Part shown: piece by piece, positions 32,966-57,487 of the stretch | Position numbering within the stretch: the stretch's first letter is position 1 | Layout: every line of letters starts with the position of its first letter | Source: Flavobacteriales bacterium | GTDB taxonomy: Bacteria > Bacteroidota > Bacteroidia > UBA4408 | DNA: 64,000 nucleotides | Assembly (NCBI GenBank): GCA_040383485.1 | Contig: JBEIDK010000002.1 | Coordinates: 7,766-71,765, forward strand | Direction: 5' to 3' | The notes under the pieces: model-generated | Seen by the model: the letters and a program-made list of their open reading frames with translations, nothing else | Told to the model about the DNA's origin: nothing | Database searches by the model: none | Translations under genes and position numbers: made by a program

Positions 32966-34236
32966 AAAAAACAAACATAATACTATCCGTAACCGGACTT
33001 GGCTATGTAGGACTACCCTTAGCACTAGAATTTGCTAAGAAATACAAAGTCATTGGTTTTGATATCAACGAAGCTCGGATTGCACTGATGAAGCAAGGTA
33101 TTGATCCTTCTCAAGAATTAGGTTCGGAAGCTTTTGATAATGCCAATATCACGTTTACTTCGGTAGTTGAACCTTTGACGGAGGCCAATTTTCACATTAT
33201 TGGGGTTCCAACCGATATTGATAAAAACAAAGTACCCAATTTAAAACCGTTAATAAGCGCCTCAAAGAGCATCGGTAAAATACTAAAAAAGGGAGATATC
33301 GTTGTATATGAATCAACCGTTTATCCGGGTTGTACCGAAGAAGATTGCATACCTGTTTTAGAAAAATATAGTGGATTAATTGCTGGGGTTGATTTTCAAT
33401 TCGGTTACAGTCCAGAGCGCATTGTGCCTGGCGATAAAGTAAAAACGGTTAGTAAAATATTAAAAATTGTTTCTGGAAACAGTGCCGAAGCTTTGGAACA
33501 CATTTCGGAAGTATACGGCTCTATTATTGAAGCAGGTTTACACAAAGCACCTTCCATCAAAGTTGCAGAAGCTGCTAAAGTGATTGAAAATACGCAACGC
33601 GACATCAATATTTCGTTAATGAATGAATTGGCGATTATTTTTGATAAAATGGATATTGATACCCAAGCGGTTTTGGAAGCTGCCGGAACCAAATGGAATT
33701 TTCACAAATACCAACCCGGTTTAGTGGGCGGCCACTGTATTAGTGTCGATCCGTTTTACTTAATGCACAAAGCGAAAAAATTGGGAATCGACCCGCAAGT
33801 CATTGCTGCTGGAAGACGCGTAAATGATTTTATTCCCACGTTTATTGCTAAAAAAGTCGTTCAAACATTGATCGAGCAAGATAAAAATCCAGGAAAATCC
33901 CGCGTGTTGGTGATGGGAGTTACCTTTAAAGAAGAAGTATCCGACATTCGAAATTCTAAAGTAATCGATTTGATAAAGGAACTAAAAGACTATTCTGTTG
34001 CAGTCGATGTCATTGATCCTAATGCAGACCCATTAGAACTGAAACAACATTATAATATTAATCTTTCACCCAACCCAACAGGGAAATACGACAGTATTGT
34101 TGTAGCAGTAGGACATCAAGCGTATCGCAACATGACACCATTAGAAATCGAAAAATTATCAAACGGCTCAGTATATCTATTCGACATCAAAGGCGTCCTA
34201 AATAAAAAAGACTTCAAAAATTATTGGAGATTGTAG
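32959..34236 (+). CDS. nucleotide-sugar (UDP-N-acetyl-hexosamine) dehydrogenase, TviB/WbpO/CapL family
   Basis: 425 aa. Contains GLGYVGLPLA (NAD binding), YSPERIVPGD and the catalytic GGHCISVDP. The start must be TTG 32959, because an in-frame TGA lies at 32953 and there is no ATG before the Rossmann motif. Confidence 0.85.
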   Translation: MKQKTNIILSVTGLGYVGLPLALEFAKKYKVIGFDINEARIALMKQGIDPSQELGSEAFDNANITFTSVVEPLTEANFHIIGVPTDIDKNKVPNLKPLISASKSIGKILKKGDIVVYESTVYPGCTEEDCIPVLEKYSGLIAGVDFQFGYSPERIVPGDKVKTVSKILKIVSGNSAEALEHISEVYGSIIEAGLHKAPSIKVAEAAKVIENTQRDINISLMNELAIIFDKMDIDTQAVLEAAGTKWNFHKYQPGLVGGHCISVDPFYLMHKAKKLGIDPQVIAAGRRVNDFIPTFIAKKVVQTLIEQDKNPGKSRVLVMGVTFKEEVSDIRNSKVIDLIKELKDYSVAVDVIDPNADPLELKQHYNINLSPNPTGKYDSIVVAVGHQAYRNMTPLEIEKLSNGSVYLFDIKGVLNKKDFKNYWRL

Positions 34237-34283
34237 GCAATGTGTCAATTAGCCAATTAGCCGATGAGTCAATTTGAAAATTT
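34236..34283 (+). repeat. octamer array (6 units) starting on the stop codon
   Basis: Units: ggcaatgt gtcaatta gccaatta gccgatga gtcaattt gaaaattt. The first G is the last base of the TAG stop (34234-36). Confidence 0.85.
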
Positions 34284-34326
34284 GTTATTCAATAGTATAA
34301 AAAACAAACCACAATAAATAAAAACC

Positions 34327-34352
34327 TTGGCGCCCTTGCGTCTTAGCGGCAA
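34327..34352 (+). promoter_or_regulatory. GC-rich conserved box / potential stem-loop 6 nt upstream of the wzz ATG
   Basis: TTGGCGCCCTTGCGTCTTAGCGGCAA. A near-identical box lies at 50327..50351 before rmlD. The ends (TTGxCGC / GCGGCAA) are complementary. Confidence 0.45.
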
Positions 34353-34357
34353 TACAT

Positions 34358-35419
34358 ATGGAAACACCAAACGACGAAATTACCCTAAAAGAACTTATCC
34401 TTAAAGTTAAAGAGTGGTATACCTTTTTGCTTTCTCAATGGAAAACAATTGCATTAGCAGGAATCATAGGAGCCCTATTAGGTTTGGGCTATTCTTTTTA
34501 TAAAAAACCAGTGTATACTGCTACACTTACCTATGCACTAGAAGACGGAAAGTCAAGTAGTGGTTTAGGAGGAGCATTAGGACTAGCCAGTTCATTTGGA
34601 TTGGATTTAGGAGGATCTTCAGGTGGAGCCTTTTCGGGAGCCAATTTAATGGAATTGTTTAAATCTCGTGCTATGGTAGAGCAAACTTTATTAGCGCCAG
34701 TAACACAAAACAACAAAACCATTTCCTTAGCCGAAATGTACATTCAAGATAAAAAGTGGCGTGAGAAATGGGGAAAAAAGGCAAAGTTGAAGGTTATAAA
34801 ATTCTTACCAAATACAGATAGAGCCAAATTCACCCGAGTGCAAGACAGTATTTTTGGTGTGATTTATAACGATTTATCTAAAAACGCTTTAACAGTAGAC
34901 CAAAAAGATAAAAAAGTAGCCATTGGAACCATCACTCTAAAAGGCACTAACGAATACTTTGCACAGCAATTTACGTTAGCATTAACCAAAACGGTTACCG
35001 ATTTTTACATCGAAACCAAAAGCAAACGTGCCAAAGAAAACATGGACATTTTAGTACGTCAAACCGATTCCATTCGTGCCGAGTTAAACGGTGCCATAAC
35101 CGGAGTAGCCGTAGCCAACGACAATACATTCGGACTGAATCCTGCGCTAAATGTAAAACGAGTACCATCAGCCAGACGACAAGTAGACGTTCAAGCGAAC
35201 ACCGCCATTTTAACTGAAATCGTAAAACAAGCCGAATTAGCTAAAGTAACCCTACGTAAAGAAACCCCATTAATTCAAATCATCGACCAACCCATTTTAC
35301 CTTTACCAAAAGAAAAATTCGGAAAAGTAAAAGGAATCCTTTTAGGCGGCATCTTAGCTGGGTTTTTAACTGTTTTAGGATTGATTGTAAGAAGAATTTT
35401 TAAAGAGTTAAGTATTTAA
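34358..35419 (+). CDS. Wzz-like chain-length determinant (polysaccharide co-polymerase without kinase domain)
   Basis: 353 aa. N-terminal TM helix (WKTIALAGIIGALLGLGYSFY), a long coiled periplasmic region and a C-terminal TM helix (GILLGGILAGFLTVLGLIV). Confidence 0.7.
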   Translation: METPNDEITLKELILKVKEWYTFLLSQWKTIALAGIIGALLGLGYSFYKKPVYTATLTYALEDGKSSSGLGGALGLASSFGLDLGGSSGGAFSGANLMELFKSRAMVEQTLLAPVTQNNKTISLAEMYIQDKKWREKWGKKAKLKVIKFLPNTDRAKFTRVQDSIFGVIYNDLSKNALTVDQKDKKVAIGTITLKGTNEYFAQQFTLALTKTVTDFYIETKSKRAKENMDILVRQTDSIRAELNGAITGVAVANDNTFGLNPALNVKRVPSARRQVDVQANTAILTEIVKQAELAKVTLRKETPLIQIIDQPILPLPKEKFGKVKGILLGGILAGFLTVLGLIVRRIFKELSI

Positions 35420-35462
35420 TGTGCCAATTAGTCAATTTGCCAATTAGACAATGTACCAATTT
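35415..35462 (+). repeat. octamer array (6 units) overlapping the wzz stop codon
   Basis: Units: tttaatgt gccaatta gtcaattt gccaatta gacaatgt accaattt. The TAA stop is at 35417-19. Confidence 0.85.
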
Positions 35463-35659
35463 GACTCGAGGCACAGCCGAACACAACAAACCTGAAACTT
35501 GAAACTTTACCCAAGGACCCAACTGGTTAAGTATATAAAATTATACAAGATATATAAAGGACTTTTTACAGATATAAGCATAAAAACTATACGAAAAAAC
35601 AATATGTTTGTGTTTTAAAACATAAAATGACACAAAGAATTTCTTATTTAACACAATTA

Positions 35660-36200
35660 CAGCAATGGATTGACAGACCGCAGCACAGCGCCTTTATTAT
35701 ATTACCTTATATGACTTATATGTTAAAAATTAGTCAATGAGTCAATTAGACAATGTGCCAATTTGAAAATTCGTCATTCAATAGTATAAAAGGAATTGTT
35801 ACCTTCGAGAACCTCAGTCAACAGCGAGAGCCTCAGTCAAAAGACAATTAGACTTGTACTCACTTATATTTCTTAAATGAACTTAAACTAAGCGCAGCGC
35901 CTTTCTTACAATTAACTTATATGACTTATATGTTAAAAATTAGCCAATGAGTCAATTAGACAATATGACAATTAGCCGATTAGTCAATGTGCCGATTAGG
36001 AAATGTGACAATTTAAAGATTCAGTATTCATCAGTATTAATGCAATTGTTGACTTCGAGTGCCTCAGTCAACAAAGAGTGCCTCAGTCAAAAGACAATTA
36101 GACTTATACTCACTTATATGCCTTATATGGTTTAAAATTAGCCGATGAGTCAATTAGACAATATGACAATTTGCCAATTAGGAAATGTGCCAATTTGACT
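35660..36200 (+). repeat. ~2.5 tandem copies of a ~200-210-nt composite intergenic repeat
   Basis: The core CTTATATGACTTATATG lies at 35706 and 35916, with the variant CTTATATGCCTTATATG at 36113. Each is followed by an octamer array (35733-72, 35943-36022, 36141-96). The duplicated segments 35790-35900 and 36040-36150 both read ...cttcgag.gcctcagtcaaca..gag.gcctcagtcaaaagacaattagactt.tactcacttatat... Confidence 0.85.
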
Positions 36201-36221
36201 CGAGGCACAGCCGAACACAAC

Positions 36222-36300
36222 AAACCTGAAACTTGAAACTTGCAACTTTACCCAAGGCAAAGCCAAACAGTGCGAAGCAAAACCTGAAACCCGAAACCTT
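36222..36300 (+). repeat. two heptamer AAACYTG tracts flanking a GGCAAAGCC box, ending 17 nt before the ATG
   Basis: 36222-49: AAACCTG AAACTTG AAACTTG CAACTTT. 36280-300: AAACCTG AAACCCG AAACCTT. Confidence 0.8.
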
Positions 36301-36316
36301 AAACAAAAAAACTAAA

Positions 36317-36733
36317 ATGAAAAAAGCCATCATAGTCTCTGGATATTTCAACCCCATCCACAAAGGCCATGTTGAATATTTCAACAATGCCAAAGCGTTG
36401 GGCGATTACCTTATTGTAATTGTCAATAACGACAAACAACGCGCCTTGAAAGGCAGTAAAGAATTCCAACTAGAAGACGAACGTGTGTTTATCGTGTCCA
36501 ATATCAAAAGCGTAGACCAGGTATTTCTTTCCATTGATGAAGACCGTACCGTTTGTACAACTATACAACACATCCACGAACAATTGCACAAAGACTACCA
36601 GCTGGCTTTTGCCAATGGTGGCGACCAAAACAATAACTCCATACCCGAAGCTCCGATTTGTGAAAAATTAGGTATTGCATTATTAGATGGTTTGGGGGAT
36701 AAAATTCAATCGTCGAGTTGGTTGTTGAAATAA
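36317..36733 (+). CDS. cytidylyl/adenylyltransferase-family protein (HxGH nucleotidyltransferase; TagD/RfaE-domain-II-like)
   Basis: Track ORF 36233..36733 starts inside the heptamer repeats. The ATG at 36317 gives MKKAIIVSGYFNPIHKGHVEYF (HxGH motif) and a 138-aa product typical of this family. Confidence 0.7.
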   Translation: MKKAIIVSGYFNPIHKGHVEYFNNAKALGDYLIVIVNNDKQRALKGSKEFQLEDERVFIVSNIKSVDQVFLSIDEDRTVCTTIQHIHEQLHKDYQLAFANGGDQNNNSIPEAPICEKLGIALLDGLGDKIQSSSWLLK

Positions 36734-36815
36734 TATAAATATAATTGGAAATATCAGTTGGATCTCAATTGGTTTTTGATTTTAATATAAAGTGTAAATT
36801 TATTAATAAAATAGT

Positions 36816-37415
36816 ATGTTAAGATATTATAAAATATATGGATTATATGGATTGATTAGACTGTTTAGGGATAAATTCTTCACGTATTTTTACTATCCAA
36901 ATGCTAGAATAATCAGACTGCCTTTTTACATAAGAGGAAAAAAAGGTATAAGAGGGGCCAAATATCTTACAACTGGAATAAATTTAAGAATTGATATTAT
37001 TTCAAGAAAAAATTTCACTCCAACATTACAAATTGGAGACAATGTACAATTTAATGATTATGTTCATATAGCAGTAGCTAAAGGAGTTTTTATAGGAGAT
37101 AATACATTAATTGCTTCAAAAGTTTTTATTTCTGACCACAATCACGGAAATTATGCTAACGAAAATCAATCAAACCCGAATACTCCTCCAATTGAGAGAG
37201 AGTTGTTTTCTAAAGAAGTACATATTGGAAATAATGTTTGGATAGGTGAATTTGTATCTGTTTTACCTGGTGTTACAATTGGCGAAGGTTCAATAATTGG
37301 TTCAACCAGTGTAGTATCTAAAGATATTCCAGCGTTTTGTATTGCAGTTGGATCTCCAGCTAAAGTGATTAAAACGTATGACAAGGATACGAATAAATGG
37401 GTTAATGAAATTTAA
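36816..37415 (+). CDS. left-handed beta-helix (hexapeptide) O-acetyltransferase, WcaF/maltose-acetyltransferase-like
   Basis: 199 aa with hexapeptide repeats ([14 protein letters not shown]...[19 protein letters not shown]...[31 protein letters not shown]). Confidence 0.75.
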
Positions 37416-37421
37416 TAAATT

Positions 37422-40047: not shown

Positions 40048-40049
40048 AA

Positions 40050-40655: not shown

Positions 40656-40661
40656 TAATAT

Positions 40662-41306
40662 ATGCAAGATATAATTATTATTGGGGCTAGTGGTCTGGGT
40701 AAAGAGGTTGCTTATCATATTAAATCTATAAATAAGATAAACCCAAGCTTTAATGTAGTGGGTTTTATAGATGATAATTCTTCTATACTCAATAACGAAA
40801 TAATTTATGGGATAAAAGTTATTGGAAATCTTAATGATCTTATGAATAATAAATTTGATGTAAAAAATATTTGCATAGCTATAGCTGACAATAATATTCG
40901 CTTTTCAATTGTTGAAAAATTAAAGCATATTAACTTTATTTTTCCGAATATTATTGATCCTTCGGTTAATTTTGATTCTTCTAACAGCATAGGTTATGGT
41001 AATATTATTGGTCATGGTGTTTTGATGACTTGTAATATCTCTTTAGGTAATTTCAATATTTTAAACGGGTCATCAGGTTTTGGTCATGATATAACAATAA
41101 GTGATTTTAATTTATTTGGCCCTAGAACATCTATTTCAGGATGTGTGAAAATCGGAAGTTTGAATACTTTTAATTTAAACTCGTCAATTATTCAGAATTT
41201 AACAATAGGTAATGGGAATACTATAAATTTACATTCTTGTTTGTTCAAAAGTATAAAAGATGACGGAGTCTATTTTGGTGTTCCAGCGATGAAACAAAAA
41301 TTTTAA
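40662..41306 (+). CDS. PglD/NeuD-family sugar N-acyltransferase (Rossmann-like N-domain + hexapeptide beta-helix)
   Basis: 214 aa. Contains IIIIGASGLGKEVA...VVGFIDDN..., then hexapeptide turns ending in GVPA. Confidence 0.75.
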   Translation: MQDIIIIGASGLGKEVAYHIKSINKINPSFNVVGFIDDNSSILNNEIIYGIKVIGNLNDLMNNKFDVKNICIAIADNNIRFSIVEKLKHINFIFPNIIDPSVNFDSSNSIGYGNIIGHGVLMTCNISLGNFNILNGSSGFGHDITISDFNLFGPRTSISGCVKIGSLNTFNLNSSIIQNLTIGNGNTINLHSCLFKSIKDDGVYFGVPAMKQKF

Positions 41307-41326
41307 TAATAAATAAATAAATAATT

Positions 41327-42606: not shown

Positions 42607-42607
42607 T

Positions 42608-47725: not shown

Positions 47726-48862
47726 ATGTTTAATAAAATATGGCTCTCCTCACCGCACATGGGAGGCACAGAGCAAAACTACGTACACGAAGCGTTTGAA
47801 GCCAACTGGGTGGCACCACTAGGTCCTAATGTAAATGGTTTAGAACAAGATTTAGAACACTATTTGGGGAATAATGCTCACGTAGGCGCTCTGAGTTCAG
47901 GAACAGCCGCCATTCATTTAGGATTGATTTTATTAGGCGTACAAGCGGGAGATGAGGTTATTTGTCAAAGCATGACTTTTTCAGCTTCTGCCAACCCCAT
48001 TTTATATTTAGGAGCAACCCCTGTTTTTATAGATAGTGAAGCACAAACTTGGAACATTTGCCCAGATGCTTTAGAGCAAGCCATTCAAGATCGTATATCA
48101 AAAGGTAAAAAACCAAAAGCCATAATTGCGGTGCATTTATATGGGGTACCTTATCAAATAGAAGCCGTTAGAGCTATTGCAGATAAATATCAAATACCCA
48201 TTTTAGAAGATAGTGCTGAGGCTTTAGGGAGTTCTTACAAAGGACAAAAATGCGGTACTTTTGGAGATATTGGGGTGCTTTCCTTCAATGGTAACAAAAT
48301 TATTACTACATCTGGTGGAGGAGCAATTGTCACTAAAACAGCTACTCAAAAAGAGAAAGCCGTTTTCTATGCTACACAATCACGAGATAATGCACCACAT
48401 TATCAACACAGCCATATTGGTTACAATTACCGCATGAGTAATATTTGTGCTGGTATTGGTAGAGGTCAAATGGAAGTCTTAGACGAACATGTTGCTTTGA
48501 GAAGACAAATGCACGATTTTTATGTAGATATATTTGCTTCCATCGAAGGAGTCGAAGTTTTTTCTGTTCCTGACGATAATTATTTTGCTAATTATTGGTT
48601 GAGTGCCATTACTATAGATACCACAAAAACCAATGGTATAACTGCTGATACTTTACGCTTAGCCCTTGACGCTGAAAACATTGAATCACGCCCTCTGTGG
48701 AAACCGATGCATTTGCAACCTATTTTCTCCAACTATCCGTATTACGGAAGCAACGTAGCCGAAACTCTATTTGAAAACGGCCTGTGTTTGCCTTCCGGGT
48801 CTAATTTATCAGATAAGGATAGATATAGAATAGAAAAACTAATTGAGCAGGTGTTTGGGTAG
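47726..48862 (+). CDS. DegT/DnrJ/EryC1/StrS-family PLP aminotransferase (PglE/EpsN-like UDP-4-keto-6-deoxy-HexNAc 4-aminotransferase)
   Basis: The track start at 47723 is GTG, and the ATG at 47726 is preferred. Contains LSSPHMGGTEQNYVHEAFEANWVAPLGPNV and the PLP lysine region (SFNGNKIITT). Confidence 0.9.
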   Translation: MFNKIWLSSPHMGGTEQNYVHEAFEANWVAPLGPNVNGLEQDLEHYLGNNAHVGALSSGTAAIHLGLILLGVQAGDEVICQSMTFSASANPILYLGATPVFIDSEAQTWNICPDALEQAIQDRISKGKKPKAIIAVHLYGVPYQIEAVRAIADKYQIPILEDSAEALGSSYKGQKCGTFGDIGVLSFNGNKIITTSGGGAIVTKTATQKEKAVFYATQSRDNAPHYQHSHIGYNYRMSNICAGIGRGQMEVLDEHVALRRQMHDFYVDIFASIEGVEVFSVPDDNYFANYWLSAITIDTTKTNGITADTLRLALDAENIESRPLWKPMHLQPIFSNYPYYGSNVAETLFENGLCLPSGSNLSDKDRYRIEKLIEQVFG

Positions 48863-48901
48863 TCAATGAGTCAATGTGCCAATGAGTTGATTAGGGAATA
48901 A
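48862..48901 (+). repeat. octamer array (5 units) starting on the last base of the stop codon
   Basis: Units: gtcaatga gtcaatgt gccaatga gttgatta gggaataa. The TAG stop is at 48860-62. Confidence 0.8.
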
Positions 48902-49444: not shown

Positions 49445-49993
49445 ATGACTATAGAAACCACCTCCATAAACGATCTAATCATCATCAATCCTTCTGTTTT
49501 TGAAGACGAACGCGGCTATTTTATGGAGTCGTTTAATCAACAAAAATTACAAGAAGCAGGCATTCACATCCCTTTTGTACAAGATAACCAATCGTTTTCC
49601 AAACAAGGGACATTAAGAGGTTTGCATTATCAAAATCCGCCGTATGCACAAACCAAATTAGTGCGGGTATTGCATGGTGAAATTATGGATGTAGCCTTAG
49701 ATCTTAGAAAGAACTCTCCAACTTACGGGCAACATTTTGCAATTAAGTTATCGGCTGAGAACAAAAAGCAATTATTGATTCCGCAAGGTTTTGCACACGG
49801 CTTTTCGGTGATCAGTGAAACCGCTGTCGTGTTGTATAAATGCGATCAATTCTATAACAAAGCCAGTGAAGGCGGTATTCGTTTTGATGATCCTACATTG
49901 AACATTGACTGGGGCATCGATTTAAAAACAGCTATTGTTTCAGATAAGGATATAGAGTTGCCAAATTTTGCTGATTGTAATAGTGGATTTTAA
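49445..49993 (+). CDS. rmlC: dTDP-4-dehydrorhamnose 3,5-epimerase
   Basis: 182 aa. Contains FEDERGYF.E, RGLHYQ, KLVRVL.G...DVA.DLR..SPTYG and QL.IP.GFAHGF. Confidence 0.92.
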   Translation: MTIETTSINDLIIINPSVFEDERGYFMESFNQQKLQEAGIHIPFVQDNQSFSKQGTLRGLHYQNPPYAQTKLVRVLHGEIMDVALDLRKNSPTYGQHFAIKLSAENKKQLLIPQGFAHGFSVISETAVVLYKCDQFYNKASEGGIRFDDPTLNIDWGIDLKTAIVSDKDIELPNFADCNSGF

Positions 49994-49996
49994 TTA

Positions 49997-50050
49997 GCCA
50001 ATGAGGCAATTTGTCAATCAGCCGATGTGCCACTAGTCAATAGCCAATAC
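49997..50050 (+). repeat. degenerate octamer array (~6 units) 3 nt after the rmlC stop
   Basis: Units: gccaatga ggcaattt gtcaatca gccgatgt gccactag tcaatagccaat. Confidence 0.7.
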
Positions 50051-50326: not shown

Positions 50327-50351
50327 TTGCGCCCTAGCGACTTCGCGGCAA
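50327..50351 (+). promoter_or_regulatory. GC-rich conserved box / potential stem-loop 5 nt upstream of the rmlD ATG
   Basis: TTGCGCCCTAGCGACTTCGCGGCAA. TTGCGC can pair with GCG(G)CAA around a 12-nt loop. It is a paralogue of the box at 34327. Confidence 0.45.
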
Positions 50352-50356
50352 AAAAA

Positions 50357-51220
50357 ATGAAAAAAATACTAGTAACAGGCGCAACAGGCCAAGTAGGAAG
50401 TGAATTGAAGGTATTGGCACCTCGCTATTCCCAATTGGATTGGGTATTTGCCGATCGTTCGGTTTTGGATTTGAGTGATTTGAAGGCGATTTCCCAAGTA
50501 TTAGATGAAATACAACCCCAAATCATCATCAATTGTGCCGCTTATACCGCAGTAGATAAAGCAGAAACAGAAACCGAATTAGCAGATATTTTAAATCATA
50601 AAGCGGTGGCGGTTTTGGCACAATGGAGTCATTCTAATGGATGTCAATTAATACACATATCAACCGATTATGTATTTGACGGAAAATCAAATATAGCTCT
50701 GACGGAAGAGGCCTCAACTGGACCAATCAATGTCTATGGACAAACTAAATTAGCTGGAGAGCACGCCTGTCTTCGTGAAAACCCTAATGCCATTATCATA
50801 AGAACATCGTGGGTGTATTCTAAATTTGGTACCAATTTTGTCAAAACCATGAGTAAATTTATGCAGGAACGTGACAGCCTGAATGTCGTGAACGATCAAA
50901 TAGGAAGTCCCACTTATGCTGCTGATTTGGCAAAGGCTATTCTAACCATTATTTCGCATCCGAATTGGCAAGCGGGAATTTATCATTATTCCAATGAAGG
51001 AGAAATCAGTTGGTACGAATTCGCTTTAGCCATTCAAGAAATAGGAGGTTTTCAATGCGAAATAACGGGCATTCCGAGTATCGATTATCCAACGCCTGCT
51101 CGCAGACCAAAATATTCCTTGTTGGACAAATCAAAAATTGCAACTACCTTTGCCGTAGAAGTGCCCGAATATCGTGAGAGTTTGCAGAAATGCATGAAGT
51201 TAATTCGCGTTAATTCGTGA
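50357..51220 (+). CDS. rmlD: dTDP-4-dehydrorhamnose reductase
   Basis: The track ORF starts at TTG 50327 inside the GC-rich box. The ATG at 50357 gives MKKILVTGATGQVG. Also contains STDYVFDG and YGQTKLAGE. Confidence 0.9.
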   Translation: MKKILVTGATGQVGSELKVLAPRYSQLDWVFADRSVLDLSDLKAISQVLDEIQPQIIINCAAYTAVDKAETETELADILNHKAVAVLAQWSHSNGCQLIHISTDYVFDGKSNIALTEEASTGPINVYGQTKLAGEHACLRENPNAIIIRTSWVYSKFGTNFVKTMSKFMQERDSLNVVNDQIGSPTYAADLAKAILTIISHPNWQAGIYHYSNEGEISWYEFALAIQEIGGFQCEITGIPSIDYPTPARRPKYSLLDKSKIATTFAVEVPEYRESLQKCMKLIRVNS

Positions 51221-51240
51221 AATTAGAAAAATTAATAAAA
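51200..51240 (+). repeat. ~4 units of a degenerate 10-nt repeat (TTAATTCGCG-type) spanning the rmlD stop
   Basis: Units: ttaattcgcg ttaattcgtg aaattagaaa aattaataaa. The TGA stop is at 51218-20, and the repeat ends 5 nt before the rmlB ATG. Confidence 0.7.
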
Positions 51241-51245
51241 TAAAA

Positions 51246-52295
51246 ATGAAAAAAATACTAATCACCGGTGGCGCCGGATTTATTGGATCTCATGTGGTGA
51301 GACGATTTGTGAATCAGTATCCTAATTACCACATCTATAATTTAGATGCCTTGACCTATGCCGGGAATTTAGAAAATATCGCTGATATTGAAAAAGCACC
51401 TAATTATACCTTTGTGAAAGGTAATATTGTTGATGCTCCTTTTATCGACGCCTTATTTGCAGAACATCAGTTTGATGGGGTGTTGCATCTAGCAGCCGAA
51501 TCACACGTGGATCGCTCCATTACTGATCCGTTGGCGTTTGTGAAAACCAATGTAATAGGTACCATGAATTTATTGAATGCCGCTAAAACGATTTGGAAAG
51601 ACAATTTTGAAGGAAAACGTTTTTACCACATCAGTACCGATGAGGTGTATGGAAGTTTAGGTACAGAGGGTTTGTTTACCGAAACAACAGCCTATGATCC
51701 TAATTCACCTTATTCGGCTTCCAAAGCAAGTTCAGATCATTTTGTACGTGCCTATGGTGAAACCTATGGTTTGCCCTATGTAATTACAAATTGTTCAAAC
51801 AATTACGGCCCGTTTCATTTTCCAGAAAAGTTGATTCCTTTGTTCATCAATAATATAATCAATAATAAACCATTACCGGTGTATGGCGATGGAAAATACA
51901 CCCGCGATTGGTTGTTTGTTGAGGATCATGCCGTAGCCATTGATTTGGTTTTTCATGAAGGAAAAAATCATGATACTTACAATATTGGAGGTTTTAACGA
52001 ATGGCAAAACATTGATTTAGTAAAATTATTGTGTCAAATAATGGACGAAAAGTTAGGTCGTGCAGCCGGAACTTCTGCGCAATTGATTACCTATGTGAAA
52101 GACCGTCCCGGTCACGATTTACGTTATGCTATTGATGCCACTAAAATCAATACAGAATTAGGTTGGAAGCCTTCAGTAACCTTTGAAGAAGGTCTAGAAC
52201 GTACTGTAAACTGGTACTTAGACAATCAAAAATGGTTGGATAATGTGACTTCAGGAGCCTATGCGAGTTATTATGAGAAGCAATATTCGAATTAA
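51246..52295 (+). CDS. rmlB: dTDP-glucose 4,6-dehydratase
   Basis: 349 aa. Contains ITGGAGFIGSH, HLAAESHVDRS, STDEVYG and YSASKASSDH. Confidence 0.95.
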   Translation: MKKILITGGAGFIGSHVVRRFVNQYPNYHIYNLDALTYAGNLENIADIEKAPNYTFVKGNIVDAPFIDALFAEHQFDGVLHLAAESHVDRSITDPLAFVKTNVIGTMNLLNAAKTIWKDNFEGKRFYHISTDEVYGSLGTEGLFTETTAYDPNSPYSASKASSDHFVRAYGETYGLPYVITNCSNNYGPFHFPEKLIPLFINNIINNKPLPVYGDGKYTRDWLFVEDHAVAIDLVFHEGKNHDTYNIGGFNEWQNIDLVKLLCQIMDEKLGRAAGTSAQLITYVKDRPGHDLRYAIDATKINTELGWKPSVTFEEGLERTVNWYLDNQKWLDNVTSGAYASYYEKQYSN

Positions 52296-52325
52296 CACGA
52301 ATTACGCGAATTAAACAAATTGAAA
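52283..52325 (+). repeat. ~4 units of a degenerate 9-10-nt repeat (ATTNNNCGA-type) spanning the rmlB stop
   Basis: Units: atattcga attaacacga attacgcga attaaacaa attgaaa. The TAA stop is at 52293-95. Confidence 0.65.
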
Positions 52326-52721
52326 ATGAATGACCCCTACAAAATAATTTATAAAGACGAAAGCTATGCTATTGTTGGTGCTTGTATGAAAGTGCATTGT
52401 GCCTTGGGACCGGGATTTTTGGAAGCAGTGTATGAAGAGGTTTTAGAAAAAGAGTTTCAAGTCCAAAAAATTCCTTACCAACGACAAGTGAAATTAGATT
52501 TGTATTATGAAGGTGAAAAATTGAAAAAGCAATACAGGGCAGATTTTATTTGTTATGATAAAATTATTGTTGAATTAAAAGCAGTTCATCAGATGCCTTC
52601 GGTGTTTTATGCGCAACTGCAGAATTATTTAAAATGCTCAAATATGGAGTTGGGAATGTTGATTAATTTTGGCACACCATCCTTAACTTATAAAAGAATA
52701 GTAAACTCAAAAAATAGATAA
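52326..52721 (+). CDS. GxxExxY-family protein (PD-(D/E)XK-fold small protein)
   Basis: The ATG at 52326 is preferred over the TTG at 52320. Contains the signature [13 protein letters not shown], then ...[18 protein letters not shown]...QLQNYLK...GMLINFG. Confidence 0.8.
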
Positions 52722-52764
52722 ATTCGCCAAATTCGCGAAATTAGCGAAATTCGTAAAATTAGAA
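52720..52764 (+). repeat. 5 units of a 9-nt repeat AAATT(C/A)G(C/T)N filling the whole spacer to rmlA
   Basis: Units: aaattcgcc aaattcgcg aaattagcg aaattcgta aaattagaa. The first unit overlaps the TAA stop (52719-21). Confidence 0.8.
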
Positions 52765-52767
52765 CAC

Positions 52768-53628
52768 ATGAAAGGAATTATATTAGCCGGTGGATCCGGA
52801 ACAAGATTACATCCACTTACCTTAGCGGTGAGTAAACAATTAATGCCAGTATACGATAAACCGATGATTTACTATCCTTTATCGGTATTGATGATGGCAG
52901 GCATTCAAGAAATTTTAATTATTTCTACACCACATGATTTACCCCATTTTAAACGTTTGTTAGGAGATGGTAGCAATATTGGTTGTACTTTTTCGTATGC
53001 CGAACAAGCAGTTCCTAACGGATTGGCGCAGGCCTTTGTAATTGGAGAGGAATTTATAGGAAACGATTCTGTAGCTTTAATTTTAGGTGATAATATTTTC
53101 TTTGGTACAAACTTACAAGATTTGTTGGTTTCTAATCAAAATCCAGAAGGTGGAGTAGTATTTGCTTACCACGTTTCCGATCCTGAGCGTTACGGTGTGG
53201 TGGAATTTGATGGCCAATTCAATGCCGTTTCAATTGAAGAAAAACCAACCGAACCTAAATCAAATTATGCGGTACCTGGATTGTATTTTTATGATAATTC
53301 AGTAGTAAACATTGCAAAAAATATTCAACCATCGGCCCGTGGCGAATATGAAATCACCGATGTAAATAAAGTATATTTAAAGCAAGGTAACTTAAAAGTA
53401 GGCGTGCTTAATAGAGGAACAGCTTGGCTAGATACTGGTACTTTTAATAGTTTGATGCAAGCAGGGCAATTTGTACAAGTAATTGAAGAACGTCAAGGAT
53501 TAAAAATTGGTTGTATCGAAGAAATTGCTTGGCGCAAAGGCTTTATTACCAATGAACAATTACTGGAACAAGCCACAATTTTAGAAAAATCGGGTTACGG
53601 ACAATATTTGAAATCGTTGGTGAAGTAA
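52768..53628 (+). CDS. rmlA: glucose-1-phosphate thymidylyltransferase
   Basis: 286 aa. Contains [34 protein letters not shown] and LGDNIF. Confidence 0.95.
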
Positions 53629-53653
53629 ATTTTGTTCTATAGTATAAAAAGTG

Positions 53654-53680
53654 AAGGAGTTTTTTTAGACTCCTTTTTTT
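53654..53680 (+). terminator. rho-independent terminator after rmlA
   Basis: AAGGAGT (53654-60) pairs with ACTCCTT (53669-75) and is followed by a T7 run. This is the first convincing terminator on the + strand since 32.7 kb. Confidence 0.6.
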
Positions 53681-53739
53681 ATGCGTTAACTGTAAATTCA
53701 CTCAGAATTGTAGTAAATCATTTAAGAAAAGTAAAACTT

Positions 53740-54200
53740 ACATGTCTTTAAACCAAGCAAAGCGCCTTTCATACATTACCTTACATGACTTATATGTAAA
53801 AAATTAGCCAATGAGTCAATGTAAAAATAAAACATAGTGAAACTTCGTGAAAACGTTGCGAAACATTGTGTTGCAAAAAGAGTAATGAGTTAAGAGTAAT
53901 GAGTTAGGAGTAATGAGTTAGGAGTAATGAGTGAAAATTTCAAAACTTACTTGTACTCAAAAAAGTGCAGCGCCTTACTTATTATTACCTTATATGACTT
54001 ATATGTTAAAAATTAGCCAATGAGTCAATAAAAATAAAACATTGTGAAGCTTCGTGAAAACGTTGCGAAACATTGTGTTACAAAAAGAGTAATGAGTTAA
54101 GAGTAATGAGTTAAGAGTAACTTACATGTCCTTAAACTAAGCACAGCTACTTCATTACATTACCTTACATGACTTAAATGGTTAAAATTAGCAAATAAAC
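53740..54200 (+). repeat. three tandem copies of the 175-210-nt composite intergenic repeat
   Basis: Cores lie at 53780 (CTTACATGACTTATATG), 53989 (CTTATATGACTTATATG) and 54164 (CTTACATGACTTAAATG). Each carries ...aaaattagccaatgagtcaat...aaaacattgtgaaacttcgtgaaaacgttgcgaaacattgtgttacaaaaagag plus a 14-mer minisatellite. Confidence 0.9.
53879..53934 (+). repeat. 14-nt minisatellite (A/G)GAGTAATGAGTTA x4; second block x2.5 at 54086..54121
   Basis: Units: agagtaatgagtta agagtaatgagtta ggagtaatgagtta ggagtaatgagtga. Copy number differs between adjacent composite copies. Confidence 0.9.
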
Positions 54201-54245
54201 CAATTTGAAGATTTGACCCAAGGCACATCCGAAAGGAGCGAAGCT

Positions 54246-54315
54246 AAACTTGAAACTTGAAACTTGAAACTTGAAACTTGAAACCTGAAACTTGAAACCT
54301 GAAACTTAAAACCAA
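54246..54315 (+). repeat. heptamer tract, ~10 units of AAAC(T/C)TG
   Basis: Units: AAACTTG x5, AAACCTG, AAACTTG, AAACCTG, AAACTTA, AAACCAA. It ends 10 nt from the stop of the convergent minus-strand gene. Confidence 0.9.
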
Positions 54316-54324
54316 ACCTCGCTA

Positions 54325-54873
54325 CTAAAGCTGTAAAATCACTGAAATTCCGCCACGATAAGGCAACCATTCCCCACTTTTATTAAATTTTTGAGCCCTT
54401 TCATAGCGTTCTCCAGTAGTAGCATCATATCCTTTGTAAAAACTTTGCACCGTTCCACCACCTACAAAAGCTTCTAGTGCCATTTTTTCAGAAACAAAAT
54501 AGACATAACCAATACTAGCACCAGCCATGTAATTATATCCTTTTTGATAGTAATTTGTGTCTTCGTAACCATATTTTTGCAATTCAAAAGTACTCCCTCC
54601 AAGATGCGCCCCAACATAAAATCCTTTGTGGTCATTTTTTGGATAGTAACGCAGTTCAGGAGTAACGATTAAAAAACGTAATGGCTTGTCGTTGTAGCTA
54701 TTAAAAACAGAGCCAATAGCATCAACATGAAAAGAGAAGTGCCTATTTATAGGCGTTTCATAGCCTAAAGAGGGAAATCCAAGTAGGGTAGTAGCAGCAT
54801 TAATATGAAATCGATTTTGACCAAAGGTTAGTGTAATAAAACCAATGAATAAAACCAAAAAAAAGCGTTTCAT
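54325..54873 (-). CDS. DUF3575-like outer-membrane beta-barrel protein
   Basis: Track ORF is 54325..54891. The ATG at 54873 gives the signal peptide MKRFFLVLFIGFITLTFGQ. Alternating beta-strand pattern, with ELRYYP and GFYVGAHLGG motifs typical of this Bacteroidota family. Confidence 0.55.
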   Translation of the reverse strand: MKRFFLVLFIGFITLTFGQNRFHINAATTLLGFPSLGYETPINRHFSFHVDAIGSVFNSYNDKPLRFLIVTPELRYYPKNDHKGFYVGAHLGGSTFELQKYGYEDTNYYQKGYNYMAGASIGYVYFVSEKMALEAFVGGGTVQSFYKGYDATTGERYERAQKFNKSGEWLPYRGGISVILQL

Positions 54874-54888
54874 AGAGAAAATTTTATG

Positions 54889-54896
54889 CAAATATA
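54889..54896 (-). promoter_or_regulatory. candidate -7 box TATATTTG
   Basis: The plus strand reads caaatata, 15 nt upstream of the ATG at 54873. Confidence 0.4.
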
Positions 54897-54983
54897 GCTA
54901 ATTTATCGCTAATGAAAGTTAATTATGATTGGATTGTATTCAAAAAAATGCAGTTATTCGTTCGAAAATTCAGAAAAAATGTA

Positions 54984-54991
54984 TAGCTTTG
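54984..54991 (+). promoter_or_regulatory. candidate -7 box TAGCTTTG upstream of capD/pglF-like gene
   Basis: TAnnTTTG match 22 nt upstream of the ATG at 55014. Confidence 0.4.
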
Positions 54992-55013
54992 TTGTCCCCA
55001 TTATAAGGCCAAA

Positions 55014-56903
55014 ATGCAAAAATTATTAAAAAAATACATCAATTTAAAAAAACTAAGTTTTCTTCCCAGTTGGGCTATTTTATTTATAGATATTTTCATA
55101 ACTACTTCTGTATCCTTATTTACCTATATTACATTTAAGTTAATTGGTGTTGTTTTTTATGATACCTATCCTGCAAGCATTAGGTTTTCATTATTTTTAG
55201 GAGTAGTATTTTTTTATTTTCTTTTGTTTAAAACCTATACAGGAATTATTCGTTATTCAAGCCTAAAAGACGCTACACGGCTATCCAAAGCAATTGCTTC
55301 GGCTTTCATCACAGTAGTAGCTATAGATACTTTACACTATATCCTACAAGACAAGCACATATTCGTTTTAATGACGGTGTTTTTCTATTCACTAATTATA
55401 TTATTTGCGTTAATTTCTTTTCGAATTTTCATCAAAACGTTATTTAAATATTTTGCAGGAAGTGAAGAAAAACCCAAAGCAGAAAACCTAGTGATTATTG
55501 GGGTAAATAGTACCACTATAGCGTTAGCCGAGGCATTTGTAAATGACAATTCACAATATAAATTACAATTTTTTATTGATAAAAATAAATTCCTAAACGA
55601 TAAAAAGGTATTGGGGATTCCAGTAATTGCAAAAACCAATTCGATCATAGCTATTTTGCGTTATAACAAAATAAAGCACGTAGTATTGATTAAAAATTTC
55701 TTGCCTGAGAGAGAAGAATTAGATTTGTTAGAAGATTGTTTACGATACAAAATCAATGTTTATAATCCTAAATTAGTCAGTGGATTTGATACAGGGGTTA
55801 ATACTGTAAAGTCATTAAAAAAATATACCATCGAAGAATTAATGTTTCGAGAAACCATTAGTATCGATAATCCAAATGTAATTAATGCATTTACAGCAAA
55901 AACAATTCTAGTAACTGGTGGCGCAGGTTCTATTGGAAGTGAAATTGTAAATCAATTAGCCCAGTTTAATCCTGAACAAATTGTAATTGTAGATCAAGCC
56001 GAAACACCTTTGAATTCCATTCAATTGAATATGTCGGCAGCATTTCCAGAAATTCCTTGTCATTATGAATTAGTGGATGTCACTAATGCAGCTGAAGTAG
56101 CGCAATTATTCCAAAAATTTAAACCACAAATTGTCTTCCATGCGGCGGCTTACAAGCACGTGCCAGTATTAGAAACTAATTTCATGCAGGCGGTTAAAGT
56201 AAATATATTTGGTACGAAGAATGTATTAGATACGGCAATAGCATCTGGAACGCAACGTTTTGTTTTTGTTTCAACAGACAAAGCAGTCAATCCTACCAAT
56301 ATCATGGGCGCTTCTAAACGAATTGCAGAAATCATGGTACAAGCCCGATTTAATACCCAAAGAGGATCACAAAAAATGCAAGTAATTACCACTCGTTTTG
56401 GTAATGTGTTAGGTTCTAATGGTTCGGTAGTTAATTTATTTGAAAAACAAATAAAAGAGGGAGGTCCCATAACGGTTACTCATCCAGAAATTAACCGTTT
56501 CTTTATGACCATTCCTGAAGCTTGTAAATTAGTATTAGAAGCTGGAACCATGGGTGCAGGTGGAGAGATTTATATTTTTGATATGGGTAAACCTATTTTC
56601 ATTAAAGATTTAGCCGAGAAAATGATTCGCTTAAGCGGAAAAGAACCGTATACAGATATTGACATCGTTTACACGGGTTTACGGCCTGGAGAAAAATTAT
56701 ATGAAGAGGTATTGGCAGATTCATCTAAAACCTTGCCTACCTATCATCCAAAAATACTTATAGCGCAAGACCCCGTGTATTGTTATGAAAAAGTGCAAGA
56801 GTTTTTAATGAAGTTAAACAACAATACTTTTGAGAACAAAGCCGCTTTAATTGAAGCATTTACCGAATTAGTGCCCGAATTTATTCAAAACCCACAAGAA
56901 TAG
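55014..56903 (+). CDS. membrane-anchored polysaccharide biosynthesis protein CapD/WbpM/PglF family (UDP-GlcNAc 4,6-dehydratase type)
   Basis: 629 aa. Four N-terminal TM helices, then an SDR domain with VTGGAGSIGSE, AAAYKHVP, STDKAVNPTNIMGASKR and RFGNVLGSNGSV. Confidence 0.85.
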   Translation: MQKLLKKYINLKKLSFLPSWAILFIDIFITTSVSLFTYITFKLIGVVFYDTYPASIRFSLFLGVVFFYFLLFKTYTGIIRYSSLKDATRLSKAIASAFITVVAIDTLHYILQDKHIFVLMTVFFYSLIILFALISFRIFIKTLFKYFAGSEEKPKAENLVIIGVNSTTIALAEAFVNDNSQYKLQFFIDKNKFLNDKKVLGIPVIAKTNSIIAILRYNKIKHVVLIKNFLPEREELDLLEDCLRYKINVYNPKLVSGFDTGVNTVKSLKKYTIEELMFRETISIDNPNVINAFTAKTILVTGGAGSIGSEIVNQLAQFNPEQIVIVDQAETPLNSIQLNMSAAFPEIPCHYELVDVTNAAEVAQLFQKFKPQIVFHAAAYKHVPVLETNFMQAVKVNIFGTKNVLDTAIASGTQRFVFVSTDKAVNPTNIMGASKRIAEIMVQARFNTQRGSQKMQVITTRFGNVLGSNGSVVNLFEKQIKEGGPITVTHPEINRFFMTIPEACKLVLEAGTMGAGGEIYIFDMGKPIFIKDLAEKMIRLSGKEPYTDIDIVYTGLRPGEKLYEEVLADSSKTLPTYHPKILIAQDPVYCYEKVQEFLMKLNNNTFENKAALIEAFTELVPEFIQNPQE

Positions 56904-56918
56904 CAAGGCAAAAAGGAT

Positions 56919-57467
56919 ATGGAACTATTGGTTGGAGGTTTAGTAGGTATACTAGTGTTAGTTTTCATAACCGCAATAGATACCCAGTCTAATGGTTTTT
57001 TTAAACAAGAACGCATAGGACAATATGGTAAGCCATTTCTAATTTATAAATTGAGAACGTTACACTTACAAACCTGTAAAATATCGGTATGGGGTAAGTT
57101 GTTACGCACTTCTAAATTAGACGAAATGCCTCAATTCCTTAACATCTTAAAAGGCGAAATGACCTTAGTGGGTCCGCGCCCCGATGTGTCTGGATATGCC
57201 GATTTACTGCAAGGCGAAGACCGTATTATTTTAACGTTAAAACCGGGCATCACCGGCTTAGCTTCCTTAAAATACCGTAACGAAGAACAGCTTTTAGCCC
57301 TGCAACCCAATCCCCAACACTACAACGATGAGGTCATCTGGCCCGATAAAGTAAGAATTAATAAATGGTATGCCCAAAACCGCACATTGGTAATGGACTT
57401 ACAAATTCTTTTTTACACCCTAGTTCCTATACATTTTGATGTAGATTCTTTTATGGGTGATAGGTAA
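56919..57467 (+). CDS. second PglC-type phosphoglycosyl transferase, N-terminally short (possibly truncated or frameshifted)
   Basis: 182 aa. Contains FFKQERIGQYGKPFLIYKLRTL, the catalytic LDEMPQF and GPRPDV. It lacks the N-terminal K/R-x-x-D segment. An in-frame stop lies 18 nt upstream, so the ORF cannot be extended. Confidence 0.7.
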   Translation: MELLVGGLVGILVLVFITAIDTQSNGFFKQERIGQYGKPFLIYKLRTLHLQTCKISVWGKLLRTSKLDEMPQFLNILKGEMTLVGPRPDVSGYADLLQGEDRIILTLKPGITGLASLKYRNEEQLLALQPNPQHYNDEVIWPDKVRINKWYAQNRTLVMDLQILFYTLVPIHFDVDSFMGDR

Positions 57468-57487
57468 TAGGTAATAGGTAAAGGGAG
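57460..57487 (+). repeat. heptamer ATAGGTA x3-4 overlapping the stop codon
   Basis: Units: ataggta ataggta ataggta aagggag. The TAA stop is at 57465-67. Confidence 0.75.

Follow-up and report, generated by a model that had tools for sequence, protein, structure and literature searches.

Why do short tandem repeats begin at stop codon after stop codon in a polysaccharide locus? The window (the whole 64,000-nucleotide stretch analysed, from a Flavobacteriales bacterium) holds a Flavobacterium sugar-coat locus, the gene identities of which were confirmed by Pfam and by synteny with labelled relatives. A sequence-only reading had placed such repeats at eight junctions; seven of these stood, whilst the eighth, rmlD, is a weak case. 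The intergenic spacers of the locus consist of 7–9-base tandem repeats starting at the upstream stop codon, and the pattern is real and statistically strong. The principal family, on the sense strand, is the octamer CAATKNGN, whose first unit includes or directly follows the stop codon. Secondary families in the window are a 9-mer (AAATTMGYN / CGAATTANN) and heptamers. The features are:

30173–30631, + strand: NusG-family paralogue heading the polysaccharide locus (Pfam PF02357, E = 9e-20; orthologues in loci L121–L127 carry this label too), outside the repeats and given for context.
32722–32812, + strand: octamer array of ∼10 CAATKNGN units (families D1/D2), 62 nt past the stop of a 168-aa ORF and not stop-anchored.
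32881–32972, + strand: GACCCGAGGCGAAGC module, then an AAACYTG heptamer array (TRF score 85; family D5) that reaches the UDP-sugar dehydrogenase start and folds at 0 kcal/mol.
34234–34278, + strand: UDP-sugar dehydrogenase stop (TAG 34234–36) and 5-unit octamer array; the TAG is followed by G CAATGTGT CAATTAGC CAATTAGC CGATGAGT CAATTTGA.
35417–35464, + strand: 6-unit octamer array, TAATGTGC CAATTAGT CAATTTGC CAATTAGA CAATGTAC CAATTTGA, with the wzz stop (TAA 35417–19) inside the first unit.
35465–36317, + strand: mosaic spacer after the wzz array (families D4, D5, D6, D8, D9).
48860–48895, + strand: DegT aminotransferase stop (TAG 48860–62) and 3–5-unit octamer array; the TAG is followed by T CAATGAGT CAATGTGC CAATGAGT TGATTAGG.
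49990–50048, + strand: degenerate array of ∼7 units, with the rmlC stop (TAA 49991–93) inside unit 1, TTAATTAG; next come CCAATGAG GCAATTTG TCAATCAG CCGATGTG, then 7-mers.
51199–51245, + strand: rmlD end, the weak case (stop TGA 51218–20; TRF scores 38 and 33).
52288–52325, + strand: 9-mer array across the rmlB stop (TAA 52293–95), CGAATTANN in 3.7 copies (52288–52321), occupying the whole 30-nt spacer to ATG 52326.
52719–52765, + strand: GxxExxY (PDDEXK_3) stop (TAA 52719–21) and five 9-mers, AAATTMGYN (TRF scores 54–58).
53653–53683, + strand: intrinsic terminator (ten-pair stem and T run), 25 nt past the rmlA stop; the only convincing one in the locus.
53735–54320, + strand: second mosaic spacer, its modules drawn from the same families (D4, D5, D7, D10).
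57456–57481, + strand: GGTAATA heptamers (3.7 copies) across the Bac_transf stop (TAA 57465–67).
57506–57605, − strand: octamer array of ∼12 units, reading ATTG on the + strand (family D3), 39 nt past the Bac_transf stop and 130 nt ahead of the start of a 2077-aa ORF.

The mosaic spacers of this O-antigen/capsule operon are composed of the arrays and a small number of other short modules. The spacer behind wzz contains a GACTCGAGGCACAGCC module with heptamers, and composite repeats that start 210–250 nt apart, each made of the lead-in ACTTATATGACTTATATGTTAAAAATTAG and an octamer array (35728–35766, 35938–36012 and 36140–36198); its AAACYTG heptamers finish at ATG 36318. The second spacer has short octamer runs (53802–53820 and 54011–54029), GAGTAAT/GAGTTAA 14-mers and 9.6 copies of AAACTTG (54246–54312), which end 12 nt from the stop of a minus-strand DUF3575 gene. 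At rmlD, by comparison, the 10-mer GTTAATTCGY is present in 1.9 copies within the coding end, the 25-nt A-rich spacer reaches a TRF score of only 33, and the spacers of relatives hold unrelated sequence. The rmlA stop is without an array. The variable cassette is likewise free of arrays, its genes overlapping or abutting, as had been noted. Chance is excluded as the source of the pattern, because the octamer patterns gave 25 matches where shuffles gave 0, and because the joint p for stop anchoring in the four long spacers of the window is 2.3e-6 under uniform placement.

The pattern extends well beyond the window. In 120 unrelated loci, picked by a pattern fixing CAAT, K5 and G7 and surveyed as loci rather than whole genomes, 39 arrays began no more than 8 nt from a stop in the same orientation, where uniform placement predicts 11.6 (z = 12.7). 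With one array taken per locus, the counts were 34 of 69 and 5 of 54 (Fisher p = 1.6e-6). The 3′ ends of the arrays in the 120 loci were not enriched at stops (5, against 5.8 expected) or at starts (8, against 8.5). The stop codon keeps register with the repeat units: offsets are concentrated at 1, 2 and 5 nt, or at one of these values less a multiple of 8, and the stop is usually supplied by unit 1, as the TAG of CAAT-TAG-N, the TGA of CAA-TGA-GN or the TAA of TAAT. Arrays with other units are also stop-anchored (51, against 20 expected), and anchoring recurs in an independent set of viral contigs. The CAAT-type arrays lie behind ordinary housekeeping genes across many phyla; atpF, truA, scoA/B, mpl, lepB and rng are among those ahead of anchored arrays. 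Stop anchoring is real and general, and this little-studied class of repeats shows it across phyla.

The arrays are polar: it is the CAAT strand whose 5′ end meets the stop codon of a gene in the same orientation. CAAT arms come after stops, ATTG arms finish shortly before starts, and where two arms pair they make hairpins that run from stop to start or from stop to stop.

We consider it probable that the arrays are dispersed, degenerate short tandem repeats of the LSSR/STRR type, which form hypervariable mosaic linkers and have spread at the DNA level. Such repeat DNA would spread and be homogenised by slippage and ectopic recombination, or by some polar or mobile process, and would fill the dispensable stretch right behind coding regions, with the gene-side boundary fixed by selection on the protein. 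The occurrence of stops in more than one frame would then be a by-product of the unit sequence rather than its purpose. The alternative offered by the sequence-only reading, a footprint of a repeat-generating process tied to gene ends, agrees with these data, both in the generality of stop anchoring and in the variation of unit number between relatives. Three observations count against a purely neutral version. The abutment of ORFs by the CAAT-strand 5′ end alone was not explained by any neutral model that we tried; a unit family common to several phyla may point to some sequence-specific agent or function; and in about half of the anchored cases outside the window the whole spacer folds into a long hairpin from the stop to the next ORF, which gives an impression of design rather than of neutrality.

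Comparison of orthologous junctions, which had been proposed as a check, did reveal whole-unit differences among relatives. The octamer count after wzz ranges from 0 to 10, and the nonamer array at the GxxExxY stop, ahead of rmlA, has 4, 5 or 6 units. The DegT aminotransferase array has one unit in locus L127 and 7 in L242. At rmlC, L239 has eight units and L242 has 13; L245 carries heptamers of a different family there. In L121 and L122, the junction consists of the window's left array (32722–32812) fused to its right array (34234–34278), with the crossover located in the common GCCAATTAGCCGATGAGTC and the dehydrogenase gene missing. This array-by-array crossover took out or put in the gene between hosts that share an identical Wzz protein (P0005). 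Arrays at different junctions demonstrably recombine with one another, and entire genes are added or removed in this way. Accessory genes have been inserted in array spacers (L126 and L245/L246), and blocks of homology stop at arrays. At this locus, the effect that can be seen is that gene modules are joined by hypervariable linkers prone to recombination. Metagenome contigs were also seen to be broken within arrays.

A functional role as hairpin arms is the alternative that survives best, although we consider it unlikely. A CAAU arm running from the stop would pair with an AUUG arm before the next start, or before the stop of a convergent gene; the terminating ribosome might melt the base of the stem and so couple translation of the next gene, or the stem might serve as a terminator or stabiliser. 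Inverted pairs have a fixed polarity (26 against 5, p = 2e-4), and ATTG arms end 10–20 nt ahead of true ATG codons in 14 cases, against 4.9 expected, although calls of start codons are uncertain. Whole-spacer folding z-scores fall as low as −14.5, with z ≤ −1.9 in 7 of 17 stop-to-start and 9 of 13 stop-to-stop spacers, and some 70 inverted pairs per genome are given for Xanthomonas (Rehm et al. 2015, PMC4692102). The window arrays, however, are single arms without RNA structure, and would have to be half-sites or relics: spacer z-scores are mostly near 0 (−2.25 to +0.67), individual arrays score −1.06 to +0.91, and the sole inverted arm (57506–57605) lies kilobases from the other arrays. Elsewhere too, most arrays are single arms at the detection threshold used.

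It is rather more doubtful that the arrays act as a binding platform, on which sense-strand RNA or non-template DNA would hold a multi-domain or oligomeric factor (S1, cold-shock proteins or the NusG paralogue of the locus) and thereby set operon polarity or antitermination. The window arrays are sense-strand specific and unstructured, the locus has one intrinsic terminator only, and a NusG paralogue stands at its head; S1, Csp or CsrA have been suggested for TAACTGA arrays (MacGregor 2015, PMC4679880). Against this, arrays are found behind housekeeping genes of many phyla, the wzz or rmlC stop is occupied by different unit families in other lineages, a C/G ratio of 0.78 does not resemble that of a Rho-loading site, and an Rfam search gave no match.

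There is slightly less to be said for arrays retained so that polysaccharide modules can be swapped, as attC sites serve integron cassettes, and we rate this as improbable. The dehydrogenase crossover between hosts with the same Wzz, the accessory genes in spacers and the arrays at the ends of homology blocks would all fit, but the same arrays lie behind single-copy housekeeping genes, where shuffling is unexpected, palindromic attC-like structure is absent, the window has no recombinase gene, and any dispersed repeat is expected to recombine as a side effect.

Finally, it is very improbable that the arrays exist, as the sequence-only reading had suggested, as a ribosome-release wall whose three-frame stops free ribosomes and uncouple the translation of neighbouring modules: in most anchored arrays the stop codon comes from unit 1, and the TAG triplets at 32745, 32761 and 32777 do lie each in a different frame, but the wall is not supported, because three-frame closure is no faster than elsewhere (median 41 nt in array spacers, 51 nt in ordinary window spacers and 61 nt in random sequence matched for composition; Mann–Whitney p = 0.46), three-frame stops, claimed as a general property, occur in only 7 of 12 window arrays with one frame left open by the other 5, wzz junctions of orthologues at ≤82% identity are mostly array-free, and inverted arms lie just 5′ of start codons elsewhere; arrays also reach 10–16 units, well beyond a wall's need, and ATG, GTG and TTG triplets abound inside them.

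Dispersed repeat DNA of this kind has known counterparts. REP/BIME elements of enterobacteria are mosaic, recombination-prone intergenic elements behind genes in operons, often ∼15 nt or less from the stop, and Liang, Rudd and Deutscher reportedly described a stop-proximal effect of REP in 2015. The present arrays are similar in all these respects of placement and behaviour, but REP units are ∼35 nt palindromes mobilised by RAYT transposases, whereas ours are non-palindromic 7–9-mers without structure. Each gene cassette of an integron carries at its 3′ end an attC recombination site of fixed orientation, which often touches the stop codon; these sites too are oriented at gene ends, but they are imperfect palindromes recombined by an integrase, and both palindrome and integrase are absent here. 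The cyanobacterial STRR heptamers that Mazel and colleagues are said to have described in 1990 are CCCCAAT, TTGGTCA and CAACAGT; by our own reading these become CAATCCC, CAATGAC and CAACAGT on one strand, and so resemble CAATKNGN. STRR and prokaryotic LSSR (the latter from Mrazek et al. 2007, as summarised in PMC4679880) are degenerate head-to-tail repeats of 5–11 nt scattered intergenically, each genome having one unit family or a few, as here. The STRR period is 7, and stop anchoring and polarity are not known to feature in these descriptions.

The claim that no described element class behaves in this way was wrong, since Rehm et al. 2015 (PMC4692102) report heptamer arrays that do so, whilst MacGregor 2015 (PMC4679880) and the LSSR work cited there treat the wider class, and the present repeats belong to an already described wider class related to STRR and LSSR. 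The heptamers of Xanthomonas (GGGAATC) and Nostoc PCC 7120 (GGGGA(C/T)T) lie near or overlap stop codons on the coding strand, closer to the 5′ neighbouring ORF whatever its orientation, with frequent convergent inverted pairs and lengths that differ between close relatives (PMC4692102). In stop proximity, inverted pairs and length variation they match the present arrays. They differ in phylum and in period (7, against 8 or 9 in Flavobacterium), and their G-rich units are quadruplex-capable, which the Flavobacterium units (TTAG, TGAG, TGTG, TTTG) are not. The TAACTGA heptamer arrays of Beggiatoaceae, Cyanobacteria and five Bacteroidetes are also intergenic, mixed with other heptamers and subject to unit-step indels, and a role in rearrangement has been suspected, but their unit is different and they lie mostly in forward orientation just 5′ of start codons (PMC4679880). 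The phasing of stop and unit, and gene gain and loss through array recombination, are unreported in Rehm et al. 2015; what is new here is the octamer family, its occurrence in many phyla and the polarity rule.

The region from 30 to 58 kb of the window (G+C ∼33%) is a plus-strand surface-polysaccharide locus, and the near homologues of its Wzz carry the name Flavobacterium sp. With gene identities taken from Pfam and from the labels borne by relatives, the order is as follows:

NusG paralogue, 168-aa ORF, UDP-sugar dehydrogenase, Wzz, cytidylyltransferase
AT-rich block of closely packed genes, then DegT aminotransferase, rmlC, rmlD, rmlB
GxxExxY gene (PDDEXK_3), rmlA, DUF3575 gene (minus strand), Polysacc_synt_2 gene, Bac_transf gene

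Short degenerate repeats make up most of the spacers in this locus, on which Tandem Repeats Finder (TRF) and a simple in-phase search agree. They run head-to-tail with periods of 7, 8 and 9 nt (TRF; in-phase CAAT chains). The dominant family, also present in relatives, is the octamer CAATKNGN, with units CAATTAGN, CAATGAGN, CAATGTGN and CAATTTGN. Octamer patterns of two and a half units occur 25 times in the window and those of three and a half units six times, against none of either in shuffled sequence, and every one of the 11 octamer arrays lies outside ORFs. In the four long spacers, after the dehydrogenase, wzz, DegT and rmlC, the array starts on the stop codon or 1 nt past it (joint p = 2.3e-6, for uniform placement inside their own spacers). 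In the rml block a 9-mer family fills three short spacers, and GGTAATA heptamers enclose the Bac_transf stop. The pattern of eight stop-anchored junctions described in the sequence-only reading is real and strong, except that rmlD is a weak case, with a 10-mer pair inside the coding sequence and a 25-nt spacer that is just A-rich. That reading was also correct in its example of TAG in each of the three frames, and in remarking that the AT-rich variable cassette lacks such arrays.

We scanned 185,579 species genomes with a 28-nt pattern (three full octamer units and a fourth CAAT), which gave at least 120 stretches. The matches listed come from Flavobacterium, Chitinophagaceae, Flavipsychrobacter, Capnocytophaga, Porphyromonadaceae, Acidobacteriota, Planctomycetota, Chthonomonadales, Verrucomicrobiales, Anaerolineae and a few Proteobacteria, and the anchoring statistics refer to the arrays, and the ORFs of at least 120 aa, called in the loci of these matches. 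The first CAAT lies no more than 8 nt from a co-oriented stop 39 times, against 11.6 expected from uniform placement (z = 12.7). The other end is not enriched, either at opposite-strand stops (5 versus 5.8 expected) or at co-oriented starts (8 versus 8.5 expected). With one array per locus the comparison is 34/69 versus 5/54 (p = 1.6e-6). Among the same matches stop and array are in register, the offsets clustering at 1 (TAG), 2 (TGA) and 5 (TAA of TAAT), with further clusters at these values minus 8, 16 or 24, where the last codons of the protein are encoded by the array. Arrays of other units in these loci are anchored likewise (51 versus 20 expected), and arrays in an independent set of viral contigs show the same stop behaviour. 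The genes upstream are ordinary ones, including ATP synthase b, TruA, CoA transferase A and B, Mpl, signal peptidase and RNase G. In GC-richer phyla (Acidobacteriota and others; loci L004, L008, L012, L045 and L053) the octamer units are CAATGGGG and CAATGAGG. As with the heptamers of Xanthomonas and Nostoc, G-quadruplexes could arise from these units, but not from those of Flavobacterium.

Intergenic short tandem repeats have been on record in bacteria since 1990 and, to our knowledge, have so far been explained by nobody. The octamer strings themselves had no occurrence in the searched literature. The wider repeat class is that of MacGregor 2015 and the LSSR survey cited there (PMC4679880), and the window arrays share the marks of LSSR/STRR repeats, namely head-to-tail units of 5–11 nt, dispersed intergenic arrays, and unit number that changes between close relatives. 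The claim that no described element class behaves in this way does not hold, since Rehm et al. 2015 (PMC4692102) reported G-rich heptamers, from Xanthomonas and Nostoc, that have several of the same properties: they occur near or overlapping stops on the coding strand, lie closer to the 5' neighbour whatever its orientation, form ∼70 inverted pairs per genome and vary in array length, their function being left open. The same polar placement, near or overlapping the coding-strand stop and nearer the 5' ORF, is found both in the window and in the other loci. The octamer arrays of the window are a new variant within a known but unexplained repeat class, for which transposition has been suspected (Subirana and Messeguer 2019).

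Comparison with ∼90 related loci, found via Wzz homologues, shows variation in unit number between orthologous junctions. An array starts at the wzz stop in every relative of at least 84% identity, L163 excepted, and its unit number ranges from 0–1 to ∼10, the relatives L159 and L166 having ∼10 units; in L234 the wzz stop is the TGA of a terminal ATTTGA unit. In more distant relatives the next gene mostly overlaps the wzz stop, and four of them carry another unit family at the same stop. The spacer from the GxxExxY gene to rmlA is 37, 46 or 60 nt long, corresponding to 4, 5 or 6 nonamers, and the octamers after rmlC number 7, 8 or 13, with TCGTGAA heptamers in their place in L245. The arrays are abrupt at both edges, and the degeneracy gradient is therefore uninformative on growth direction.

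Two relatives, L121 and L122, are without the dehydrogenase gene. Their junction is the window array after the 168-aa ORF fused to the array after the dehydrogenase, with the crossover within the common GCCAATTAGCCGATGAGTC, and one identical Wzz protein (P0005) is found both with and without the dehydrogenase gene. What this case adds is direct evidence, from comparison with relatives, that such arrays remove or bring in entire genes at a surface-polysaccharide locus. Both slippage and recombination between arrays are shown.

Accessory genes lie inside mosaic spacers in L126 (12146-13504), L245 (1074-1901) and L246 (1047-1874), and comprise SLFN_AlbA_2 + HATPase_c_4 and Virulence_RhuM. The end of the L126 gene, ...GTGAAAAATTAG|TCAATGAG, matches the module lead-in TTAAAAATTAG|TCAATGAG, and its stop therefore appears to be module-derived.

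The arrays also have a polarity. In the loci of the matches listed, it is the 5' end of the CAAT strand that lies nearer the ORF in 85 cases versus 37 (p = 1.6e-5), and where the neighbour on that side is the start of a gene, the array has the ATTG reading in the sense of that gene. ATTG arrays ending 10–20 nt 5' of a true ATG number 14 against 4.9 expected, start calls being less certain than stops. Neighbouring inverted arrays in the other loci stand in the order CAAT...ATTG 26 times and in the reverse order five times; the window has a single, distant inverted array only. About half of the anchored spacers fold as a single long hairpin that spans the distance between the stop and the following ORF (z down to −14.5). 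In the window, individual arrays fold with z of −1.06 to +0.91 relative to shuffles, with no clear structure, and the spacers are likewise unstructured, the strongest value, −2.25, belonging to the 244 nt that directly follow wzz. The arrays in the window are therefore single arms.

In six of the other loci, L036 (scoA-scoB), L003 (atpF), L106 (rng), L008, L012 and L098, entire spacers are octamer-array palindromes (folding z −3.6 to −14.5). Each makes one hairpin with the stop codon in its base, and the other strand ends just 5' of the next start or convergent stop.

What causes the polarity, and what function the arrays may have, is a matter of inference. We consider it rather unlikely that there is a cross-phylum spacer grammar, with a CAAU array beginning on the stop, an AUUG complement that ends a few bases short of the next start or at a convergent stop, and the whole spacer as one hairpin. 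Under such a grammar, a ribosome terminating at the stop codon in the hairpin base would open the base and expose the next start, a coupling device that would suit bacteria without Shine-Dalgarno pairing, and stop-to-stop hairpins would terminate transcription in both directions. An equally possible reading of the fixed polarity is an unrecognised mobile element that inserts at gene junctions and has the pairs as its ends. MITE-like elements have terminal inverted repeats and a target-site duplication; inverted arms of fixed polarity are present in the other loci, and inspection by eye around paired arrays, without a clean empty site, gave no convincing duplication. Under either the coupling or the mobile-element reading, single arms of the window type would be half-elements left by recombination.

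REP/BIME elements have a palindromic unit of ∼20–40 nt and are associated with RAYT (Y1 transposase); the units here are 7–9 nt and non-palindromic, in unstructured window spacers. Integron attC sites are imperfect palindromes with R''-L''/L'-R' cores and an integrase nearby. The arrays have no palindrome, and no integrase-like ORF was noticed among the annotated genes in or beside the locus, the ORFs of the variable cassette lying outside the Pfam scan. Phase-variable contingency repeats sit in an ORF or promoter spacer, where unit change switches expression; these arrays sit after a stop or fill the spacer between genes.

The proposal that the arrays act as a ribosome-release wall, placing stops in all three frames, is not supported: 5 of 12 arrays are without a stop in one frame, and the median distance past the stop at which all three frames are closed is 41 nt where the spacer holds an array, against 51 nt for ordinary spacers and 61 nt for compositionally similar random sequence (p = 0.46). 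Any AT-rich spacer is as good for this purpose. An intrinsic terminator is a GC-rich hairpin followed by a U run, and the sole one, at 53653-53676, is away from any array; terminator and structured-RNA readings are dropped for the window because its arrays and spacers do not differ clearly from shuffles. Rho-loading (rut) sites are C-rich, G-poor, unstructured RNA, and are rejected because G exceeds C (C/G 0.78 over all octamer arrays), with G-rich units such as CAATGGGG in other phyla. Since arrays also come after housekeeping genes, neither a polysaccharide-specific element nor an ops-like site for the NusG paralogue is accepted as a general explanation. Phage origin is discounted, with the pattern in just 28 of 2.9 million viral contigs. 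Rfam 15 gave no matches in window 31000-58500 at a permissive E ≤ 1, and sigma-70 promoters showed no excess over shuffles with a model that is not of Bacteroidota promoters.

The octamer family occurs in a dozen or more bacterial lineages, ranging from Bacteroidota to Acidobacteriota and Planctomycetota, and follows a clean statistical rule: one defined end lies on the stop codon, while its complementary arm lies 5' of start codons. Should the hairpin grammar prove functional, it would give bacteria without Shine-Dalgarno-led initiation a general means to link or insulate adjacent genes. Should it not, the arrays would still lend plasticity to serotype loci and be an annotation hazard. They break short-read assemblies, forming the end points of short-read contigs of relatives, and yield spurious small gene calls.

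Three contigs of relatives, L121, L122 and L123, all end ∼80 nt past the wzz stop, within repeats. Gene callers predict a 27-aa ORF there (L121 and L122, 11062-11142; L123, 2482-2562), which starts at a TAATG overlap with the wzz stop and traverses the array, and is probably spurious. In L239 (2925-3970) rmlB is broken into two ORFs (228 and 127 aa), suggestive of either a pseudogene or an error of assembly.

A conserved GGGACTGACCAGGCGAAGCCGTGGAG element (window 32700-32727) lies ∼45 nt past the 168-aa ORF, immediately 5' of the first array, and is conserved at orthologous positions in relatives L121, L124, L126 and L127. Related GACYCRAGGC(N3)GCC modules occur at 32881, 35464, 36198, 36248 and 54214. 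AAACYTG heptamer arrays (window 32913-32972, 36222-36304 and 54246-54312; L124 8576-8608; L126 14247-14279) have a folding energy of 0 kcal/mol and end at, or no more than ∼12 nt from, start codons. The copy at 54246-54312 is without a plus-strand gene downstream and adjoins the stop of the DUF3575 gene on the minus strand, as an orphan leader might.

The true starts of rmlD, the GxxExxY gene and the cytidylyltransferase likely lie downstream of their longest-ORF starts. They are probably ATG 50357 for rmlD, in the same MKKIL context as rmlB; ATG 52326 for the GxxExxY gene, whose homologues have 130–132 aa; and ATG 36318 for the cytidylyltransferase, because its longest ORF otherwise reads through heptamers. 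In the AT-rich cassette an (AATA)x4.2 microsatellite (41304-41324) begins on the TAA stop of ORF 40662-41306, and the start of the following gene is probably ATG 41327, not 41554. Exact-protein look-ups found no record for the window proteins or P0001. On the minus strand, a 6457-aa ORF (3342-22715) contains nine tandem copies of a 258-nt unit at 6924-9247 (73% matches, TRF score 1825) and looks like a giant repetitive surface protein.
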